NCBI GenBank assembly: GCA_030583805.1 | Contig: CP129476.1 | Coordinates: 117,453-181,452, forward strand | Direction: 5' to 3' | DNA from: Patescibacteria group bacterium | GTDB taxonomy: Bacteria > Patescibacteriota > Patescibacteriia > SG8-24 > DYFX01 | DNA length: 64,000 nt | Shown: positions 38,029-47,499 of the stretch, piece by piece | Numbering within the stretch: position 1 is the first letter of the stretch | How the letters are laid out: each line of letters opens with the position of its first letter | Notes under the pieces: model-generated | Told to the model about the DNA's origin: nothing | Database searches by the model: none | Seen by the model: the letters and a program-made list of their open reading frames with translations, nothing else | Position numbers and translations under genes: made by a program

Positions 38029-38101
38029 TCCCGACCCTCTTGCGTGAAAAACAGGCCTTTTGCTAGGACCCCAGCATCGCTTTTATTCTTATCGCGATGC
38101 T

Positions 38102-38245
38102 ATGCAAGAGTCAGCTTCCGGTACGGCGGTTCAGGAAAAGGTCTGTCCGAAATGCGCGGGCAAGCTCGTCCAGCGCAAGAGCAAATTCGGCCCCTTCACC
38201 GGCTGTGGAAACTATCCGCAGTGCAAGCATATTGAGAGGAAATAG
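38102..38245 (+). CDS. stand-alone topoisomerase-type C4 zinc-ribbon protein
   Basis: CPKCAGKLVQRKSKFGPFTGCGNYPQCKH matches the zf-C4 Topoisom ribbon (CPxCG...G.F.GCSNYPxCK). Confidence 0.4.
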   Translation: MQESASGTAVQEKVCPKCAGKLVQRKSKFGPFTGCGNYPQCKHIERK

Positions 38246-38767
38246 AGCGGCAAAGACTCCCCGAAAGGGGAGTTTTGCGTTACCTGATGAAGTAGAAAGA
38301 TGCATCAGCGCAGCATCTCGGCATCCTGGCTGCAGTCGTACGGCAAGAGCGATGCGTGCGCCTCTTGTTCGTACGCCATTTCGGTCTCTTCGGACTGTTG
38401 CAGCGCATCGTCGAGCTCCGCCATGAGAGAGCGGTACCCGTCACCAAGCGCGTGCATGAGCTTGTGGAACATGTCTGCGTAGGTTACGAGGAGTGACGCC
38501 TCCTTGCCTTTCCGAAGACGCCCAGCCGCGCCGCTTCTTACAACCGCGGACCGTTTTGTTACCTTTCCCGCGGAAGCCCGTATACATCTGCATGAAACGC
38601 AACACCAAAATCCTCCTCCTCGCCGGCACGGCTGCCAAAAGCCTTGTGCTGGCGTTTACGATGCTGGTTTTTAAGTGAGCAAGAAGCCATTTAAAGCGCG
38701 TATGCTCACGGCTCTTGATTCGGCAGAGGATTGACTTTTAGCAAAATTTGTGCTAGCCTGGTCGGTT

Positions 38768-38983
38768 ATGTCCCGTTACCAGGCTTATCTTTTATCCCGT
38801 ATTTGGGGCGTCCGTCGCCACCATGTTTTGCGGCGCGCGAAATATCGCTGTGAGAAATGCGGAAGCGCGAATCCGCTGCACGTGCACCATAAGACGTACG
38901 AGAATATCGGAAACGAGCCGCTAAAAGACCTTATCGCTCTGTGTGTTGGGTGCCATTCACAGGCGCACGGTTTGCCCGTATAA
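38768..38983 (+). CDS. HNH endonuclease (small, stand-alone)
   Basis: CEKCGS...LHVHHKTYENIGNEPLKDLIALCVGCHSQAH HNH motif. Confidence 0.6.
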   Translation: MSRYQAYLLSRIWGVRRHHVLRRAKYRCEKCGSANPLHVHHKTYENIGNEPLKDLIALCVGCHSQAHGLPV

Positions 38984-39101
38984 TTGAAATACAACTGAAT
39001 AGTTATCCAGAGTACGGTGAGGGATATCGGCCCTACGACCCGTCGGCAACCAGGCTTCGGTCACGGTGCCTCCGACCCGAAAGGGGAAGATAATTCTTGA
39101 A

Positions 39102-39140
39102 TGGACTCTTCCTTGCAGGGGAGAGTTTTTCTCTTTATTA
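39102..39140 (+). terminator. possible rho-independent terminator downstream of HNH gene
   Basis: 8-bp stem ACTCTTCC/GGGGAGAGT (one G-U) followed by TTTTTCTCTTT. Confidence 0.3.
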
Positions 39141-39212
39141 GACGCACAAGAGTCGATATTTATTATGAAATTGACCGGTAAACACGTAATGCGAGTACCG
39201 TGGATAACTCTT

Positions 39213-39244
39213 GTTAAGTTTTGTTATGTCTACTGGTATAATCA
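39213..39244 (+). promoter_or_regulatory. putative promoter of R-M operon with extended -10 (TGgTATAAT)
   Basis: Perfect TATAAT preceded by TGG, 25 nt upstream of the MTase ATG. TTGTTA -35-like hexamers upstream. Confidence 0.35.
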
Positions 39245-39268
39245 GCCTAAAGATTAGGTAAATCTAGC

Positions 39269-40504
39269 ATGAGATTGATCACATTAAGAGAGGCCTCAGA
39301 AATTTTGGGCATGCATCCTAATACGCTTCGGAATTGGGAAAGATCCGGCAGGATTAAGTGCGTAAGGATCGGCGCTCGTGGCGACAGGCGCTTTGATTAC
39401 GACTCACTATTGGAAGTCGTGGGAAACGACCAAAGCTTTAAAAAAAAATATACATTGGTTGATCTTTTTTGCGGATGTGGTGGGCTCTCAAAGGGGTTTG
39501 AAATGACCGGATCGTTTAAAACCATTTTTGGTATTGATAACTGGAAGCCAGCATTGGAAACTTTTGAATTAAACCACCCTGAGGCGAGAGGGGTACAGTG
39601 GTCACTGGAGAAAAGAAATATAGATGCCCTAATTAAAGAGTTGGGTGAGTTTGATGTGGATGTCGTTGTGGGCGGACCACCATGCCAGGGATTCTCATTG
39701 GCAGGGCCTCGAAATTTCAACGACACAAGGAATTCTTTGTACCTCGGTTTCCTAAGGTTTGTTAAACAGACATCTCCCCGAGCTTTCGTTATTGAGAATG
39801 TTCCGGGCCTAGCCTCGCTTTACGGAGGCGTTGTAAAAGACCGGATCATTAAGGAATTCACAAAACTCGGGTACAACGTGATCTCTAAGGTTTTGCTAGC
39901 TTCGGACTATGGAGTCCCACAAAACCGCAGAAGGCTTGTATTCGTTGGAGTAAAGGGTGGAACTTTTAGTTTTCCCAAACCTACGCATGGTGAAAATTTA
40001 AAGCAGAAAATTACAGTGAATGACGCCGTTTCCGATTTGCCGTCATTAAGGAGTGAGTTGGGACAGGAGGTAATGCCTTACGGACAAAGAGTTAAGAATG
40101 AATTCCAAGAGTATTGCAGAAGAAATAGTGATCGGCTACATAATCATGTGGCCGCAAATCACGACGATGCTACCAGAAGAATAATCGCACTTGTTCCCGA
40201 AGGCAAAAATTATAAGTCTTTACCCGAAGTTCTAAGAGGCACGCGCAATTTTCATGTGGCGTGGACGAGGTTCGATGGTAGGTGCCCAGCTCCCACCATC
40301 GATACGGGCCACCGCCATCACTTCCACCACAAGGAAAACAGGGTGCCCACAGTCAGGGAATCAGCACGACTGCAGTCGTTTCCAGATGATTTCATCTTCC
40401 TTTCTTCCAAGACAAATCAATACAAACAGGTTGGAAATGCAGTTCCCCCGCTTTTAGCAAAGCAGATCGCGCTGTCTTTACTGGATTCATTTGATAAAAA
40501 ATGA
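39269..40504 (+). CDS. DNA (cytosine-5)-methyltransferase with N-terminal MerR/excisionase-type HTH domain
   Basis: HTH_17-like N-terminus (MRLITLREASEILGMHPNTLRNWERSGRIKCVRIG). m5C-MTase motifs I DLFCGCGG, IV GGPPCQGFS, ENV, QNRRR, RESARLQSFPDDF, GNAVPP. Confidence 0.9.
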   Translation: MRLITLREASEILGMHPNTLRNWERSGRIKCVRIGARGDRRFDYDSLLEVVGNDQSFKKKYTLVDLFCGCGGLSKGFEMTGSFKTIFGIDNWKPALETFELNHPEARGVQWSLEKRNIDALIKELGEFDVDVVVGGPPCQGFSLAGPRNFNDTRNSLYLGFLRFVKQTSPRAFVIENVPGLASLYGGVVKDRIIKEFTKLGYNVISKVLLASDYGVPQNRRRLVFVGVKGGTFSFPKPTHGENLKQKITVNDAVSDLPSLRSELGQEVMPYGQRVKNEFQEYCRRNSDRLHNHVAANHDDATRRIIALVPEGKNYKSLPEVLRGTRNFHVAWTRFDGRCPAPTIDTGHRHHFHHKENRVPTVRESARLQSFPDDFIFLSSKTNQYKQVGNAVPPLLAKQIALSLLDSFDKK

Positions 40505-40505
40505 C

Positions 40506-41936
40506 ATGAAAAAGATATACAGAGTTCCCGATGAGTATAATTTTCGACTGCACCACATCCGCCCCAGATTCAAAAATGACGTCGAGAACGTCTTGTTTTT
40601 CATGGCTTCTGAAATATCAAAAATTACTCCTGCGCCGGAGGAGGATTTTGCTAGAGAGTTGAACAAGGCTATCAGGCGCTACCCAGGCAATGCCTCCAAA
40701 GCCGAAAAAACAATTGATAATTGGCGGACCGAAATAACGGCTCTCTTTGGATTGATTGAATATGATGGTGAGATCGCAAGGCCCGGGCGAATGGCGAATT
40801 TACTGGCAGAATCTCAGGATTTGATCGAGTTTTTTCGCTATTTCCTATTTTACTTCCAATATCCTGGCGGCCATCTGAAACCCCACGAATCCTTGGAGTT
40901 TATCGAGGCTGGCGTACGTTTTAAACCGGCCAAGTATTTGTTGCAGGTGCTTTTAGATGGGAAAAAGATTTTGGGTGAAAACGCGAAGTTTGGCATAACA
41001 AAAGCCGAGGCTACTCACTGTATTTTTAACGACTTGCGAGTGACGCGTGATGGCCGTCCAGCAAACAAGACTGCCGAGTTGATTATTAGCAATAGAAACG
41101 ATAAGGCCGAATACCCTCAGGGAGGGGATATCGTTCGTTATGCCGGGGACATACTTGACTATATGGTGTTGGCGGATCTCGTTAGACTGAGACCGAACTA
41201 CAAATACTATTTGAATCCAGTGCATTTCGAGACCATACAGGCCTTTGTTGGAAATAATGACTATTTTGAACCATACGAGAGCTTGTATAAGCACGGACAT
41301 CCCTTGTTAGCCAATGTAACGGCATCCAAGGAAGATTGGTTTCATTATGTGAACAACAAACTTGATTCAAGTATATTTGAGGCGGACGCTTTTTCTATCA
41401 TTGAAGAGGCTGGTGAGACAGTTGACAGTGAAAAGGAAAGTTTCTTTATTGGCGAGGTCTTAAAAAAAATCCGGGATCTCAAAGAGTCGGAATCTATTAA
41501 CACCAAGGAGGTTGGAGATGTGGGCGAGGCCATCGTTATCGAACATGAAAAAAATAGAATGATGCGATTGGATCGCGAAAGCCTGCTGCACCTGATTAAA
41601 AAAATTCCAGAATCTTACGCGATGGGTTATGATATAAATTCATTTGAAGGCATCGGAGAAATACGAAGATACATTGAAGTCAAGACGAGTATAAGTCGAG
41701 GAAAACTTGCCGCGCAGTTTTTCCATATGACTCCCAGTGAATGGAGTTCTGCAGAGACGCTTAAGGATACCTACTTTGTGTACCGCTTAATGATCTCGGC
41801 GCAGGGCATCAGCCTTTTTCTAATACAGGATCCAGTTGGAAAATATAAGAGCGACCGCCTGAGCATGGCTCCTCGCGACGGTGCCGACATTCACTACACT
41901 GAGAGATCGGGCAACTGGGAAGAGCTTCTTGTATGA
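40506..41936 (+). CDS. candidate restriction endonuclease: novel N-terminal domain + C-terminal DUF3883 (PD-(D/E)xK-like) domain
   Basis: C-terminal about 150 aa fits the DUF3883 pattern (GDVGEAIVIEHEKNRM...GYDINSFEGIGEIRRYIEVKTS...FFHMTPSEWSSAE...TYFVYRL). Sandwiched between two m5C MTases with ATGA coupling to the downstream gene. Confidence 0.6.
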   Translation: MKKIYRVPDEYNFRLHHIRPRFKNDVENVLFFMASEISKITPAPEEDFARELNKAIRRYPGNASKAEKTIDNWRTEITALFGLIEYDGEIARPGRMANLLAESQDLIEFFRYFLFYFQYPGGHLKPHESLEFIEAGVRFKPAKYLLQVLLDGKKILGENAKFGITKAEATHCIFNDLRVTRDGRPANKTAELIISNRNDKAEYPQGGDIVRYAGDILDYMVLADLVRLRPNYKYYLNPVHFETIQAFVGNNDYFEPYESLYKHGHPLLANVTASKEDWFHYVNNKLDSSIFEADAFSIIEEAGETVDSEKESFFIGEVLKKIRDLKESESINTKEVGDVGEAIVIEHEKNRMMRLDRESLLHLIKKIPESYAMGYDINSFEGIGEIRRYIEVKTSISRGKLAAQFFHMTPSEWSSAETLKDTYFVYRLMISAQGISLFLIQDPVGKYKSDRLSMAPRDGADIHYTERSGNWEELLV

Positions 41937-42922
41937 GAGTGCGAAAAATTAAAATAGCTTCATTTTTTAGTGGATGCGGCGGTATGGATCTCGGTGTCGA
42001 GGGCGGCTTTTCTTTCCTGGAAAAAAAGTATCCTAGACATCCCACACAGACTGTTTTTGCGACTGATTATGATCAGAAAATTTCTGAAATATACAATCAG
42101 AATTTTCTCACCGATATTGTTGTGAAAGATATTAGAAATCTGGACGCTGAAGAAGTGCCAGACCACGATGTTCTTACAGGAGGGTTTCCATGCCAATCTT
42201 TTTCAGTTGTCGCGCAGAATCCGAAACGGCTCGGCTATAAGGATGTTAGAGGGCAACTGTTTTTCGAAATGTGCAGAATTCTGAGAGAGAAGAAGCCCTC
42301 GGTGTTCGTTGGAGAAAATGTAAAGGGCCTTTTGTCGGCGAATGGCGGAGAGGCGTTCCCTCTTGTGATCAAAGAGTTTGAGAATGCCGGTTACCATGTT
42401 AAGCACAAGGTTTTAAATGCGTCCCACTACGGGGTGCCCCAAAAGAGGGAAAGGGTATTTATTGTCGGTTTTCGAAGTAAAAAGGCTTTTGATTCTTTTA
42501 ACTTTCCTAAACCAACGACGGAGAACGGGCCCGTTCCGATTTCTTCCGTTGTCATCCCGGAAAACGAAGTAGAAAAAGTACACTACTTTAGCAAGAAAGC
42601 GATTCAAGGCCTGAGCCGTTCAAAAAATCATAAGCTGATGAATAAGGGCAGGGCCCAAAGATTGGACCAGCCTTGCAACACGGTTGGAGCACATCTGGCT
42701 AAAGTGAGTTTGAATAGCACGGATCCGGTACTCTGTTTAAAAGGAAAGTACCGGATGTTTACGCCACGCGAGGTTGCTCGAATCCAATCCTTTCCCGATA
42801 ATTTTGTGCTTTCCGGGTCGAGAACTGTTAACTATAAGGCGCTGGGTAACGCGGTTGCGCCGGTGGTGATGTGGCATGTGACAAGAGAAATCGTTAAGGC
42901 GCTCGGCGAGTACGGCAAGTAA
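41933..42922 (+). CDS. DNA (cytosine-5)-methyltransferase (second MTase of operon)
   Basis: Motifs FFSGCGG, GGFPCQSFS, ENV, QKRERVF, REVARIQSFPDNF, GNAVAPVV. Confidence 0.9.
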   Translation: MRVRKIKIASFFSGCGGMDLGVEGGFSFLEKKYPRHPTQTVFATDYDQKISEIYNQNFLTDIVVKDIRNLDAEEVPDHDVLTGGFPCQSFSVVAQNPKRLGYKDVRGQLFFEMCRILREKKPSVFVGENVKGLLSANGGEAFPLVIKEFENAGYHVKHKVLNASHYGVPQKRERVFIVGFRSKKAFDSFNFPKPTTENGPVPISSVVIPENEVEKVHYFSKKAIQGLSRSKNHKLMNKGRAQRLDQPCNTVGAHLAKVSLNSTDPVLCLKGKYRMFTPREVARIQSFPDNFVLSGSRTVNYKALGNAVAPVVMWHVTREIVKALGEYGK

Positions 42923-42923
42923 T

Positions 42924-43337
42924 ATGGCCGACATGTTCAGCAAGAAAAGACGGAGTGAAATAATGTCGAAAATTCGCTCAAAAAATACGGGCGCAGAACG
43001 TTTAGTGTTCAGGCATCTTCGTGCAAAAGGGTTGCACTTTCAAAAGCATTATAAAGGCGCTCCAGGCAGCCCTGATATCGCCTTGCCGAAGAAAAAGCTT
43101 GCGGTTTTTATCGACGGGGACTTTTGGCACGGAAGGCATCTGAACCGCCTCTTGGTAAAAGGTACAAAGAACTATTGGGTAATGAAAATCACGACCAACA
43201 TAAAACGGGATCGTCGCCAAAGAGCAGCATTAAAAAAAGGTGGTTGGAAGATCTTAAAGGTTTGGGAAAGCGACCTTAAACGTGTAAGTACAAGGTACGA
43301 CCAGCTATTAAAAGTTGAAAAGTTCATTAAAAACTAA
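42924..43337 (+). CDS. vsr: very-short-patch-repair endonuclease
   Basis: RSEIMSKIRSKNTGAE...PGSPDIALPKKKLAVFIDGDFWHG...GWKILKVWE Vsr signature. Starts 1 nt after the MTase stop. Confidence 0.85.
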   Translation: MADMFSKKRRSEIMSKIRSKNTGAERLVFRHLRAKGLHFQKHYKGAPGSPDIALPKKKLAVFIDGDFWHGRHLNRLLVKGTKNYWVMKITTNIKRDRRQRAALKKGGWKILKVWESDLKRVSTRYDQLLKVEKFIKN

Positions 43338-43339
43338 AA

Positions 43340-43362
43340 ACCCCTTGTGGGGTTTTTAAGTC
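43340..43362 (+). terminator. rho-independent terminator after vsr
   Basis: AAACCCCTTGTGGGGTTTTT: perfect 7-bp GC-rich stem + T-run. Confidence 0.6.
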
Positions 43363-43366
43363 ATCC

Positions 43367-43497
43367 GACGGTAATCTCCCCATCCTTCACCCCCACCTTC
43401 ACCGTCGACTCCTCTTTGACGGTACCTTCCAAGATTTGTAGCGCCAGCTTGTTGAGGATCACGTCCTGAATCAGCCTCTTGAGCGGGCGGTCGCTTT
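43367..43497. repeat. displaced copy of the clpB 3' end (direct repeat partner of 44881-45011)
   Basis: About 131 bp near-identical to the clpB 3' coding end. It contains an in-frame stop and synonymous substitutions (e.g. GTC/ACC vs GTG/ACG for the V and T of ...GEITVG*). Confidence 0.7.
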
Positions 43498-43568: not shown

Positions 43569-44528
43569 GTGAAGAGCAAGTTCATGATGTTGGCTGTGTT
43601 GTGCGCGGTTTGCTCCTGTCGGGCTGATCTCGACTCCACCCCTCAAACCTCGGCGACGAAGATCGTCTTTGAGGATCCGCCGGCGTTGGAGGTGCTGATG
43701 GCCTTCATGGGAGATGCGGGGGTGAGACCGGCAGAGTTCACTTTCAGGGTCGGAGAGAGCATGCGGGGCGGGTTCCGGTTCAATGCGGACGAGTCGCTGG
43801 ATGCTGGCTTGCAGAGGTTCCGGCGGCTGCATGCTGAATTCCTCGCGGCGGCAATTGCCGATGCGGAGACTCACGCCGAGGATCGTTCCGACCGCTGGCG
43901 CAACTTCGTGGTGTTTCTCGAGGATTCCAACGCCTCTCCACAGGTGTGGATCGAGGAAACAGTCATGGGAACACGTGAGGACGCACTTGTTGTCCAGGAT
44001 CTCTTCGGAGGAATCGCGACGGAGAACCCGTCAGTCGACGAGGAAGTCGTGCCGGACAGGATTGTCTACTCGACCTCGCATGAATCCTGGGCTCCATATG
44101 GTGGAACCGCGAAGCTTACGCAGGGTGTTTCGTATCACACCTTCTACTTCAACAACCTGTCTGCCTACGGCAGCACGTCGACGTACGAGCACGAAGCGCA
44201 GGTTTACAATCGTGCCTACGCCGACTACGCGGGGTATTGGAGCAGTAACCTGCCCTACGCGTACTACGACACTCCGTTTTCGGACTCGATCGACGTCTTT
44301 ACGGTTGGTTCTGCCCAAGCTGCTTCCATGGCGACCTACACGCAGTACTATACGTACATGGCGCTGAGTCCTGGTCTGGCGACGAGCGCGACGGTTCGGG
44401 TCAAAGGCCAGCTTGGTCATCGCTCGCCGAGCTGGTGCTACTCGACCTGGTGCATCTTCGCTGACGCGACAACCGGCTCCATGACGACGTTCCTGGCACC
44501 AGTAGAAGGGATCAGTTGGTCTTACTAG
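43569..44528 (+). CDS. secreted Tyr/Ser/Thr-rich lipoprotein-like protein (hypothetical)
   Basis: GTG start with AAGGAGGG RBS (4-nt spacer). Signal peptide MKSKFMMLAVLCAVCSC. Tyr-rich C-terminal half. Confidence 0.5.
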   Translation: MKSKFMMLAVLCAVCSCRADLDSTPQTSATKIVFEDPPALEVLMAFMGDAGVRPAEFTFRVGESMRGGFRFNADESLDAGLQRFRRLHAEFLAAAIADAETHAEDRSDRWRNFVVFLEDSNASPQVWIEETVMGTREDALVVQDLFGGIATENPSVDEEVVPDRIVYSTSHESWAPYGGTAKLTQGVSYHTFYFNNLSAYGSTSTYEHEAQVYNRAYADYAGYWSSNLPYAYYDTPFSDSIDVFTVGSAQAASMATYTQYYTYMALSPGLATSATVRVKGQLGHRSPSWCYSTWCIFADATTGSMTTFLAPVEGISWSY

Positions 44529-44836
44529 ACCTTCGGCGCATTCTTCTTTGAGCGCGCCTCTTTTATTTTCGAAATCACAACCATGACTGCGCTCAGCAGG
44601 AGAGTATTCAACAGAAACGATACCCAGTTGAAACGAGTCGGGTGCTCGCGCACGTCCTCAAGCGGAACTGACTGCTGTTCTGAGTAATCGATGCTTTTTT
44701 CCTGCACTACAAAGGACAGAGGCAGGCCGTACTGATAAACGTTGCTCTTTTCTGAAGAAGCTCTTCGCGGCAAGAAGGCGGTTAGACCGGTAACAAGTAC
44801 CGCAGCAGCAATGATGTAGATGTAAGTTTTCTTCAT
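44525..44836 (-). CDS. small membrane protein (N- and C-terminal TM), hypothetical
   Basis: 103-aa ORF, AT-richer than the background. Overlaps the convergent gene's stop. Confidence 0.45.
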   Translation of the reverse strand: MKKTYIYIIAAAVLVTGLTAFLPRRASSEKSNVYQYGLPLSFVVQEKSIDYSEQQSVPLEDVREHPTRFNWVSFLLNTLLLSAVMVVISKIKEARSKKNAPKV

Positions 44837-44880: not shown

Positions 44881-45011
44881 GGTTCATCCCACCGTAATCT
44901 CCCCATCCTTCACCCCCACCTTCACCGTCGACTCTTCTTTGACGGTACCTTCCAAGATTTGCAGCGCCAGTTTGTTGAGAATCACGTCCTGAATCAGCCT
45001 CTTGAGCGGGC
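44881..45011. repeat. clpB 3' end segment (direct repeat partner of 43367-43497)
   Basis: Forms the genuine C-terminal coding end of clpB. Similarity to the upstream copy ends at ...GAGCGGGCGG. Confidence 0.7.
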
Positions 45012-47499
45012 GGGCGCCGAAGCTGGGGTCGTAGCCTTTTTCGACAAGCAGCTTTTTGGCGGCGGCGGAAACGTCCAGCTTGATGTGCTTGTCCTTGAGA
45101 CGATCCTGCACGCGGGCGAGTTGGACGTCGGCGATCTTCGTCAGGTGTTCCATCTTCAGGGCGTGGAAGACGACGGTTTCGTCGACGCGGTTCAGGAACT
45201 CAGGCTTGAAGGATTGGCGCAGGAGGTTCATGACGCGGTCGTGGAGGGTTTCGTCGGCGCTCTTTTCCTCGTCGGCGTCTTCGAAGCCGATCGCGCCCTT
45301 CTTTTTGCCGAGCTCCAAGATCTCCTCGGAACCGACGTTCGAGGTCATGATGATGATCGTGTTCTTGAAATTCACGACGCGGCCTTTGCCGTCGGTCAGG
45401 CGGCCGTCGTCGAGGATTTGGAGAAGCGTATTGAAGACTTCCGGATGCGCCTTTTCGATTTCGTCGAAGAGGACCACCGAGTACGGGCGGCGGCGGATCT
45501 GTTCGGCGAGTTGGCCGCCTTCGTCGTGGCCGACGTAGCCGGGAGGGGAGCCGATCATGCGGGCGACGGAGTGGCGTTCGCCGTACTCCGACATGTCGAG
45601 GCGCACCATGGCGTTCTCGTCGTTGAACAGGAAGGCCGCCAGCGCTTTCGCCAGCTCGGTTTTACCGACGCCCGTCGGGCCCAGGAAGATGAAGGAACCC
45701 ATCGGACGGGTTTCTTCGCCCACGCCCGCGCGCGAGCGGCGCACGGCGTCGGAGACGGCTTTGATGGCCTCTTCCTGTCCGATCACGCGCTTTGAAAGTT
45801 CGGTTTCGAGCTGCACCAGTTTCTTCAGTTCGGACTCGAGCATTTTGGAAACGGGAATGCCCGTCCAGCGCGAAACGACGTTCGCCACGTCCTCCTCGTC
45901 GACTTCTTCTTTCAGGAAACGATGGCCCTTCTGGAGCTTCTTCAGCGTTTCCTCGGCGGCTTTGAGCGCCTTTTCAGTCTCCGGCACTTGGCCGTAGCGG
46001 ATCTTGGCGGCGAGCTCGAGGTCGCCCTTACGTTCGGCGATGTCGGCTTCCTGCTTCAGCTTGTCGATTTTCTTCTTGCCGTCGCGGATGGCGGAGATGG
46101 CGTCCTTTTCATTCTTCCAGCGGAGTTCCAAGCCGGACGCGCGCTCCTTGGCCTCGGCCAGGAGTTTCTCGACTTCCTTCAAGCGCACTTTGGCGTGCTT
46201 GTCTTCTTCTTTTTCAAGCGCGCGCTTTTCGATTTCAAGCTTGGTGATGCCGCGCTTCAGGGCGTCGAGCTCCTGCGGCTGCGAGTCGATCTGCATGCGG
46301 AGTGCGGAAGCGGCTTCGTCGATCAGGTCGACGGCCTTGTCCGGCAGGAAACGGTCGGTGATGTAGCGGTGCGACAAATTGACTGCCGCGACGATCGCGG
46401 AGTCGGTGATGCGCACGCCGTGGTGCAGGTCGTAGCGTTCTTTGATGCCACGGAGAATCGAGATGGCGTCTTCCGGCGACGGTTCATTGACCGTCACGGG
46501 TTGGAAGCGGCGAGCCAGAGCGCCGTCCTTCTCGATGTGCTTCTGGTATTCCTTGAGCGTGGTCGCGCCGATGCAGCGCAGTTCGCCGCGAGCGAGCGCG
46601 GGCTTCAAAAGGTTCGAAGCGTCCATGGCGCCTTCGGTGCCGCCGGCGCCGACGAGGGTGTGAAGTTCGTCGATAAACAAGATGACGCCGCCGGCCGATT
46701 TCTCGACTTCCTTCATGACGGCTTTGAGACGCTCTTCAAACTCGCCGCGGAACTTGGTGCCGGCGATGAGCGCGCCCAAGTCGAGCGCGACGACGTCTTT
46801 GCCTTTCAGCGATTCCGGCACGTCGCCCGAGACGATGCGCTGCGCCAAGCCTTCGACGATCGCGGTTTTACCGGTGCCGGGTTCGCCGATCAGGGCGGGA
46901 TTGTTTTTGGTGCGGCGCGAAAGGACCTGGATCACGCGGCGGATCTCCTCGTCGCGGCCGATGACCGGATCGAGCTTTTCGGCGCGCGCGAGGCGGGTGA
47001 GGTTGCGCGAATATTTTTCGAGCGCTTGGTAGGTGGCTTCCGGTTCGGTCGACGTCACGCGCTGCGAACCGCGGATGTCCATCAAGACTTTCAAAACGGC
47101 ATCGGTCGTGACGCCCATCTCGGCAAGCAGGGAAGCGGCCTCGTTTTTGGTCTCCATGAGGCCGAGCAAAAGGTGCTCGGTCGAAACGTATTCATCTTTG
47201 AAACGCTCGGCGATCTTGTGCGCTTGGCGGATGGCGCGGTCGAGGTTTTGCGAGACGAAAACCTGGGTCGTGTTGCCGCCCTCGGCCTTTTTCGGCGCCT
47301 CCAGCCTGGCGCGCTTCAAGACGGCCGCCGGATCGATCCCCAGTTTTTTAAAAACGGAAACAACCACGCCCTCTTCCTGGCGAAGGAGCGTGCTGAGCAG
47401 GTGGTTGGCCTCCAAGACCTGGGAACCGGCCTCAAAAGCCAGGTTTTGAGCCTCCTGGAGGGCTTCGAGGGCTTTGGTCGTAAAGCGGTTTTGTTGCAT
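44884..47499 (-). CDS. clpB: ATP-dependent chaperone ClpB
   Basis: 871 aa. N-domain [21 protein letters not shown]. Two AAA+ modules ([16 protein letters not shown]) and a coiled-coil middle domain. Confidence 0.95.

Follow-up and report, generated by a model that had tools for sequence, protein, structure and literature searches.

The window analysed here is a stretch of 64,000 nucleotides of contig CP129476.1 from a Patescibacteria group bacterium, and the subject of this analysis is one of its genes, here called R, together with the operon in which it lies (Table 1). R is an intact open reading frame (ORF) that runs from ATG to stop and encodes 476 amino acids. An upstream TTG at 40491 would give an alternative protein of 481 residues, and the 476-residue form is the one used by NCBI and by all close homologues. 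The protein is an exact match to an NCBI protein from a metagenome-assembled genome (MAG). R lies between two genes for 5-methylcytosine (m5C) DNA methyltransferases (MTases), M1 and M2, with its start codon 1 nt past the M1 stop and its own stop overlapping the M2 start (ATGA). M1 carries the motifs PPCQGFS and ENVPGL, and M2 the motifs FPCQSFS and ENVKGL. The operon reads M1, to which a helix-turn-helix (HTH) domain is fused, then R, M2 and a very-short-patch repair endonuclease (Vsr), and is followed by a terminator-like hairpin. The explanation that best fits the locus as a whole, and one in which we have high confidence, is that this is a BpuJI-family Type IIS restriction-modification (R-M) system carried on an acquired low-GC island.

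Table 1. The R-M operon, its domains and residues, and the island that holds it (positions are those of the window)
Feature	Coordinates	Strand	Basis
Low-GC island holding the whole cassette	38600..43400	.	GC 0.41-0.49 versus ~0.60 in flanks
Putative promoter/operator region of operon	39129..39268	+	-10-like TATAAT 39237-39242; two TTGTTA(A/T)G words
M1, m5C DNA methyltransferase, 411 aa, MTase domain aa 62-404	39269..40504	+	DNA_methylase E 1.9e-70; TIGR00675 dcm
HTH_17/MerR-type DNA-binding domain of M1, aa 4-49	39278-39415	+	HTH_17 E 3.8e-8
R, putative BpuJI-family Type IIS restriction endonuclease, 476 aa	40506..41936	+	BpuJI_N and NOV_C, PADLOC, BLASTP to R.BpuJI
R recognition domain, aa 5-279, two winged-helix subdomains	40518..41342	+	Pfam, PDB match, AlphaFold2 model
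D1 helix K68-T-I-D-N72-W-R74-T-E76, conserved	N72 at 40719-40721	+	Residue conservation
D2 helix G207-D-I-V-R211-Y-A-G-D215, clade-specific	R211 at 41136-41138	+	Residue conservation
R catalytic and dimerisation domain, aa 336-476, archaeal-Holliday-junction-resolvase-like PD-(D/E)xK fold	41511..41933	+	NOV_C, model of C-terminal domain
Catalytic residues of R	E341 41526-41528; D376 41631-41633; E391 41676-41678; K393 41682-41684	+	Alignment to BpuJI
M2, second m5C DNA methyltransferase, 329 aa	41933..42922	+	DNA_methylase E 7.7e-76
Vsr very-short-patch repair endonuclease, 137 aa	42924..43337	+	Pfam Vsr E 2.2e-24; TIGR00632 E 1.1e-32, above cutoff
GC-rich hairpin with A/T runs on either side (CTAAAAACCCCTTGTGGGGTTTTTAA), likely bidirectional terminator of operon	43334..43359	.	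Sequence

The original prediction, made from the nucleotide sequence alone, described R as a DUF3883 protein whose N-terminal ~320 residues belong to no recognisable family and would carry target recognition for a C-terminal PD-(D/E)xK nuclease. The DUF3883 motifs on which it drew are indeed present, at residues 335-344 (EVGDVGEAIV), 375-377 (YDI), 390-394 (IEVKT) and 423-427 (YFVYR), and the Pfam family NOV_C (=DUF3883, PF13020) matches residues 340-431 with an E-value of 4.5e-12 and a score of 46.3 bits; as this is above the gathering cutoff of 22.1, the match is not a chance one. The N-terminal region, by contrast, turned out to be far from unrecognisable. Pfam PF11564 BpuJI_N ("Restriction endonuclease BpuJI - N terminal") covers residues 5-279 over its entire profile (1-278 of 278) at an E-value of 1.2e-95, and the same domain matches the crystallised recognition domain of R.BpuJI (PDB 2VLA, 5HLT/5HNF/5HNH) at E ~7e-22. 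All that is left without a family is a helical linker of ~55 residues (aa 280-335), modelled with a predicted local distance difference test (pLDDT) score of 65-76. The PADLOC Type II restriction endonuclease model REase_II PDLC03432 covers R over its full length (E 5e-34), and no NCBIfam model matches the protein. Because its N-domain is a named and structurally solved family, the architecture of R is not new.

BpuJI is a Type IIS enzyme from Bacillus pumilus RFL1458 that recognises 5'-CCCGT (Sukackaite et al. 2007 NAR, PMC1874659). It binds the site through its N-terminal domain, which acts as a monomer, and its nuclease is repressed until the N-domains are on cognate DNA; the enzyme has a two-site optimum, cuts at several positions near its target and shows an end-directed activity, and its gene, bpuJIR, is flanked by two m5C MTase genes in the order M1-R-M2 (PMC1874659). 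The full-length R.BpuJI sequence used for comparison (P0121, 462 aa) has a numbering that reproduces the published residues N67, Q208, D348, E367 and K369. BLASTP aligns R with it collinearly, residues 10-456 against 6-438, at 27% identity and an E-value of 9e-40. M1 is 50% identical to the M1 of the BpuJI reference locus (L006) and ~30% identical to its M2, and the M2 of the window is 46% identical to the BpuJI M2 and ~31% to the BpuJI M1; judged by sequence, all three genes are orthologous with those of the BpuJI system. Shared between the two systems are the combination of BpuJI_N with an archaeal-Holliday-junction-resolvase-like PD-(D/E)xK/NOV_C domain, identical catalytic E/D/E-x-K residues, the D1 recognition helix with the equivalent of N67, and the gene order. 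The window operon differs from its relative in the D2 helix and the N-terminal arm of the recognition domain, in the addition of Vsr and of an HTH fused to M1, and in its host, which is a Patescibacteria MAG and not a Bacillus. By homology, then, R is a BpuJI-family Type IIS restriction endonuclease, with N-terminal recognition and C-terminal cleavage, as the characterised enzyme has; the modular, Type IIS-like function originally proposed for R, including the assignment of target recognition to its N-terminal part, was correct but was already known from BpuJI, whose N-domain is the one that binds CCCGT.

The catalytic residues follow from the same alignment. D376, E391 and K393 of R align with D348, E367 and K369 of BpuJI, and E341 aligns with BpuJI E314; all four positions are invariant in a 90-sequence alignment of the family. 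The BpuJI mutants D348A, E367A and K369A have lost catalysis and kept DNA binding (PMC1874659), which supports the earlier choice of the IEVK lysine, the equivalent of K369, as the catalytic one. An AlphaFold2 model of the whole of R (pLDDT 86.8, predicted template modelling score 0.82) superposes over its N-domain on 2VLA/5HNF with a template modelling (TM) score of 0.84-0.85 and a root-mean-square deviation (rmsd) of ~3 Å. The C-terminal domain (CTD), predicted separately with a pLDDT of 84, has the alpha-beta-beta-beta-alpha-beta order of a PD-(D/E)xK core, and its best PDB matches are Archaeoglobus Hjc (2wiw/2wcw, probability ~0.94), DpnI, NhoI, the SPARDA nuclease, D212 and RecU/PrfA. The core that structure prediction was expected to reveal is thus present in the CTD model, and the assignment of the C-terminal module to the PD-(D/E)xK nucleases agrees both with these matches and with its alignment to the BpuJI CTD.

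Relatives of R are widespread. A scan of one genome per GTDB species returned 358 of them, in Patescibacteria, Bacteroidota, Firmicutes, Spirochaetes, Cyanobacteria, Omnitrophota, Planctomycetota and a Bathyarchaeota MAG. When hidden Markov models built from the window-type proteins were applied to the best 80 genome loci (numbered here with the prefix L), the order M1-R-M2 was found in 77 of the 80; the other three contigs start at R, with M2 present on each. In ~15 of these 80 loci the fetched flanks include Vsr, mostly directly downstream of M2, and L002, L007, L020, L023 and L046 are among those in which it takes the equivalent position. The clade to which BpuJI itself belongs (clade B) was represented by 81 loci, made up of 80 metagenome contigs and the BpuJI reference locus; M1-R-M2 is the arrangement in 63, M1-R-M2-Vsr in 11, and the rest are variants of that order. 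An adjacent MTase gene was present at all 160 fetched homologue loci, so that the homologues, in keeping with the restriction enzyme originally proposed, do not stand apart from MTases. The phage collection held no match to the R family, and the plasmid collection gave two distant matches only (37%), annotated as DUF3883/hypothetical. Some members of the window's own clade come from Flavobacterium, Flavobacteriaceae and Chitinophagaceae genomes.

Some relatives join or divide the genes of the cassette in other ways. A group of M1 homologues (P0242-P0267) of ~700-720 aa outscores the single-domain M1 homologues and appears to consist of tandem fusions of two C5-MTase modules, which are possibly a single-chain form of an arrangement with two MTases. 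One uninterrupted stop-to-stop frame covers either M2 and Vsr or M1 and R in L061:1442-2896, L083:7380-8810, L021:175-2640 and L081:4762-7413, a sign either of gene fusion or of no more than an in-frame overlap. At a locus identical to that of BpuJI (L005:7386-8437, Bacillus safensis GCA_040720855), R is intact and identical to BpuJI, and the M2 gene is split into two ORFs of 153 and 125 aa; the sister assembly L006 has an unbroken M2 (350 aa), and the split may be a sequencing error or else a mark of decay or phase variation in M2.

The recognition domain offers a first indication of the site that R recognises. The family falls into two clean clades, that of BpuJI and that of the window protein (clade A). 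The D1 helix, K-T-x-[DN]-N-[HW]-R-T-E-I, and the arm arginines R14/R19 are common to both clades and invariant. The D2 helix is invariant within each clade and reads S-Y-x-x-Q-H-I-x-E-Q in the BpuJI clade versus G-D-x-x-R-Y-A-G-D in the window's clade, and the equally invariant signature of the N-terminal arm is R-C-T-I-I-R-G-K in the former and R-x-H-H-x-R-P-R-F-K in the latter. According to PMC9240713, the BpuJI mutants N67A and Q208A no longer bind DNA. N67 is retained in R as N72. Q208 is replaced by Arg211, and this position holds an arginine in all the window-clade sequences that were examined, at identities as low as 45%, and a glutamine in all BpuJI-clade sequences. Glutamine typically reads adenine and arginine typically reads guanine, and on these preferences the replacement leads to the guess that base pair 5 has changed from T:A to C:G, and the site from CCCGT to CCCGC.

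Site avoidance points the same way. Avoidance was scored against a maximal-order Markov expectation on both strands, summed per locus, with the 512 strand-symmetric 5-mer pairs ranked from the most depleted (rank 1); the window-clade set comprised 84 cassettes and 647 kb of host flanks, and the 81 BpuJI-clade loci were run blind through the identical pipeline. CCCGC/GCGGG is the most depleted pair in the window-clade cassettes, at 0.36 of expectation (59 observed, 166 expected; rank 1/512), and stands at 0.79 (rank 5) in the host flanks, compared with 0.86 in cassettes and 0.91 in flanks of the BpuJI clade. For CCCGT/ACGGG the BpuJI clade gives 0.41 (rank 1) in cassettes and 0.74 (rank 4) in host flanks, and the window clade 1.18 and 1.01. 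The BpuJI-clade run returned the known site of that enzyme and therefore serves as a positive control for the test. In the clade-versus-clade contrast of cassettes, CCCGC and CCCGT are the two extremes (z -5.6 and +6.6), and in that of flanks CCCGT is the top word depleted in clade B. Because 6-mers that extend CCCGC show no further consistent bias, the signal is placed at 5 bp, and in clade A the depletion extends to no other CCCGN or related word. The window cassette contains one CCCGC, at 40447, within the conserved GNAVPP motif of M1. From the clade-specific avoidance and the replacement of Q208 by Arg211, we consider 5'-CCCGC-3'/5'-GCGGG-3' to be the probable recognition site of the window enzyme.

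Several points weigh against this picture. That Q208 reads base pair 5 is something we infer. Counts from homologous cassettes are not independent of one another, and between the flanks of the two clades CCCGC differs only modestly (0.79 versus 0.91), without being among the top A-depleted words. Neither CCCGC nor CCCGT is avoided in the 59 kb of host DNA within the window itself (1.03 and 0.95), which is consistent with a recent acquisition of the island. The variable target recognition domain (TRD) regions of the MTases are 48% (M1) and 44% (M2) identical to those of the BpuJI MTases and align without large gaps, a resemblance that might be taken as an argument for an unchanged CCCGT site. 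As to the nuclease, the Foldseek E-values for the CTD are weak, at 2.6e-3 or worse, for matches that are almost entirely PD-(D/E)xK nucleases. The enzymology ascribed to R, namely Mg2+-dependent cleavage, dimerisation, activation and the use of two sites, is what we infer from BpuJI, and with an identity of only 27% between the two proteins the cleavage geometry, oligomeric state and two-site dependence of R are extrapolations.

Two alternatives to CCCGC have to be weighed against this evidence. R may have a third specificity, neither CCCGT nor exactly CCCGC, for instance a longer or degenerate site with CCGC, the depletion of CCCGC being a by-product. The avoidance evidence is indirect, its flank signal is moderate, and the several N-arm residues that differ (HH.RPRF versus TIIRGKA) mean that more than one base could have changed; set against the lack of consistent extra depletion in the extended 6-mers and of any other depleted word in clade A, and against the recovery of the exact known site in the control clade, these points leave a third specificity unlikely. 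The other alternative is that R is a true isoschizomer of BpuJI, in which the divergent D2 helix and N-terminal arm are another structural solution for the same 5'-CCCGT. We judge this quite improbable: the residue corresponding to Q208, which BpuJI needs for binding, is not conserved and is an invariant arginine here, CCCGT is the most avoided word in the BpuJI-clade cassettes and is not avoided in the window clade, and the window island as a whole holds 11 CCCGT versus 1 CCCGC, even if the orthology of the three genes, the TRD identities and the invariance of R14/R19 and of the D1 helix (KT.[DN]N.RTEI) in both clades would suit an unchanged site.

The preferred assignment, CCCGC, coincides with the specificity of two commercial Type IIS enzymes, FauI of Flavobacterium aquatile and SmuI of Sphingobacterium multivorum (PMC4309577). 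FauI makes a fixed 4/6 cut, unlike BpuJI, the sole characterised relative of the window protein, which cuts at variable positions. Like the window operon, the FauI system has two m5C MTases. The literature found on FauI and SmuI consists of usage papers, with no sequence-family information linking them to the window's clade; if they do belong to it, the CCCGC specificity is already known too.

Once the site of the cassette itself is set aside, the 5-mers most avoided in the host flanks of the 165 related loci are GGACC/GGTCC, CCAGG/CCTGG, GGCCC/GGGCC, GCGCC/GGCGC, GACGC and GAGTC, all recognised by other common R-M systems (GGWCC, CCWGG, GGNCC, HgaI-like and PleI/MlyI-like). The host DNA of the window stands out for GCGCC/GGCGC (0.81, z -6.9) and GGCCC/GGGCC (0.56).

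Two further readings concern R itself rather than its site. A decayed, inactive R gene retained beside functional MTases was considered, as R genes in MAGs are often inactivated and the split M2 of L005 shows that such cassettes decay; R has, however, the 476 aa of its closest homologues, no frameshift and all 25 family-invariant residues, the catalytic ones included, and M1, M2 and Vsr are intact with their catalytic motifs present, and this highly improbable reading was rejected. Also rejected, with a chance close to negligible, was the reading that R has no partnership with the MTases beside it and is a DUF3883 nuclease that either acts alone or is methylation-dependent (Type IV-like): DUF3883/NOV_C does occur in Type IV-like and other defence contexts, the PADLOC models TmtA, PD-T4-1 and PDC-S36 match the CTD alone, and fusions of DUF3883 to McrB-N-like or other domains have been described, Type IV being Family III of that account (PMC1874659), but the N-domain of R is BpuJI_N and not McrB-N, and R is translationally packed between two intact, abutting m5C MTases, an arrangement kept in essentially all 160 relatives across many phyla and one in which a methyl-dependent enzyme would be self-destructive.

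If the window operon works as the BpuJI-family Type IIS reading suggests, the N-terminal double winged-helix domain of R would bind a short asymmetric 5-bp site as a monomer, via major-groove contacts, and the C-terminal archaeal-resolvase-like PD-(D/E)xK domain, with E341, D376, E391 and K393, would dimerise. Binding of the N-domains to cognate DNA would relieve the repression of the nuclease, which would then cut near the site in a Mg2+-dependent manner, optimally with two sites. M1 and M2 would methylate one strand each of the asymmetric site and so protect the host, and Vsr would correct the T:G mismatches left by deamination of the m5C that the two MTases produce. The offset between recognition and cleavage that was originally proposed is retained here, by homology to a Type IIS enzyme; a single fixed offset would be an unsafe assumption, given the several cut positions and the end-directed activity of BpuJI. 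In its general plan the enzyme resembles FokI and N.BspD6I, which also join a monomeric winged-helix-based recognition module to a separate non-specific nuclease that needs dimerisation, and PMC9240713 likens the D1 and D2 subdomains of BpuJI to FokI. Foldseek also matches the full-length R model to the Type IIS nickase N.BspD6I with a probability of 1.0. Unlike these enzymes, R has a nuclease of the Hjc-like/NOV_C PD-(D/E)xK subfamily and not of the FokI type; their sequences have no detectable similarity to that of R, and the global superposition is poor (TM ~0.4, rmsd ~13 Å).

Expression of the operon is probably autoregulated by the HTH on M1, to judge from comparison with known systems. 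In the m5C MTases of the SsoII/EcoRII/MspI type, an N-terminal HTH autoregulates the R-M operon, and M1 is like them in carrying an N-terminal HTH before a complete C5-MTase, with no separate C protein in the window. It is unlike them in that its HTH is of the HTH_17/MerR-excisionase type and is a separate gene in close relatives. HTH_17 is encoded by such a gene, 58-64 aa long and upstream of M1, in L007, L009, L011, L012, L017, L018 and L020, and is fused to M1 in the window, in L013-L016 and in L022; among the 120 best M1 homologues, ~17 have an HTH fusion. TTGTTA(A/T)G is present as two direct copies, at 39211-39218 and 39221-39228, which are 10 bp apart and lie just upstream of the TATAAT of the putative promoter, which is itself preceded by a terminator-like hairpin at 39103-39128. 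The word TTGTTA[AT]G also occurs upstream of the HTH-M1 fusions in L013-L015 and L022, and it is a possible operator for the HTH_17 domain. A module that is separate in some relatives and fused here may be a non-canonical controller in place of a C protein.

The cassette as a whole is horizontally acquired on its low-GC island. The window contains no tRNA gene, no integrase was seen beside the island among the window ORFs examined, and no direct repeats bracketing 38.6-43.4 kb were found; the only long repeat, 134 nt from the 3' end of clpB, brackets a neighbouring 1.39 kb and not the cassette. In the closest relative with long flanks (L007/L008:146-1753 and neighbouring genes), the cassette adjoins a large serine recombinase, RadC, a HigB toxin and a phage-P4-cII-like gene, and from these neighbours it lies inside an integrative mobile element. 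No counterparts of these four genes were seen next to the window island.

The edges of the island hold a few further features. At its left edge, an ORF of 77 aa (38750-38983, +) resembles HNH endonucleases (Pfam HNH E 2e-4; NCBIfam IscB HNH region E 1e-7; PADLOC ZorE HNH E 6e-6) and may be either part of the R-M island or a selfish element of its own, and just upstream of the island an orphan ORF of 61 aa (38060-38245, +) consists of a topoisomerase-type C4 zinc ribbon only (Zn_ribbon_Top1, E 3.5e-13). To the right, the two copies of the 134-nt direct repeat (43361-43494 and 44884-45017) are 95% identical. The right copy is the true 3' end, stop included, of an 871-aa ClpB gene (44884..47499, -), and the left copy is an orphan clpB 3' fragment that begins 2 nt past the terminator hairpin of the R-M operon. 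Between them, the 1.39 kb enclosed holds two ORFs without a Pfam match (43569..44528, +, 319 aa; 44525..44836, -, 103 aa), and the arrangement looks like an insertion into, or a duplication at, the 3' end of clpB. A Logan short-read contig of the same organism (L001) ends exactly at this repeat.

The current understanding of restriction enzymes is unchanged by these results. The operon is a textbook Type IIS M-R-M(+Vsr) arrangement, and what the analysis adds is only the specificity prediction (CCCGC, through Q208 to Arg211) and the successful control of the avoidance method. The annotation "DUF3883 domain-containing protein" can give way to that of a BpuJI-family Type IIS R-M nuclease with named catalytic residues and a predicted CCCGC site. 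That cassette-plus-flank 5-mer avoidance recovered the BpuJI site blind suggests a cheap means of assigning specificity in m5C-based Type IIS families, which are the ones missed by PacBio methylomes. A more tentative proposal concerns the history of the family: a large sister clade of BpuJI, spread over Patescibacteria, Bacteroidota, Firmicutes, Spirochaetes, Omnitrophota and a Bathyarchaeota MAG, may have come to recognise C instead of T as the fifth base of the site, largely via the change from Gln to Arg in the D2 helix. If this is true, BpuJI, whose recognition domain has been solved in complex with DNA at 1.3 Å, and the window's clade are a natural pair for the rational re-programming of a Type IIS recognition domain. 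For the organism itself, the operon indicates that bacteria of the candidate phyla radiation, with their tiny genomes, acquire complete R-M/Vsr cassettes horizontally, and in Patescibacteria genetics incoming DNA would need either methylation at CCCGC or the absence of CCCGC.

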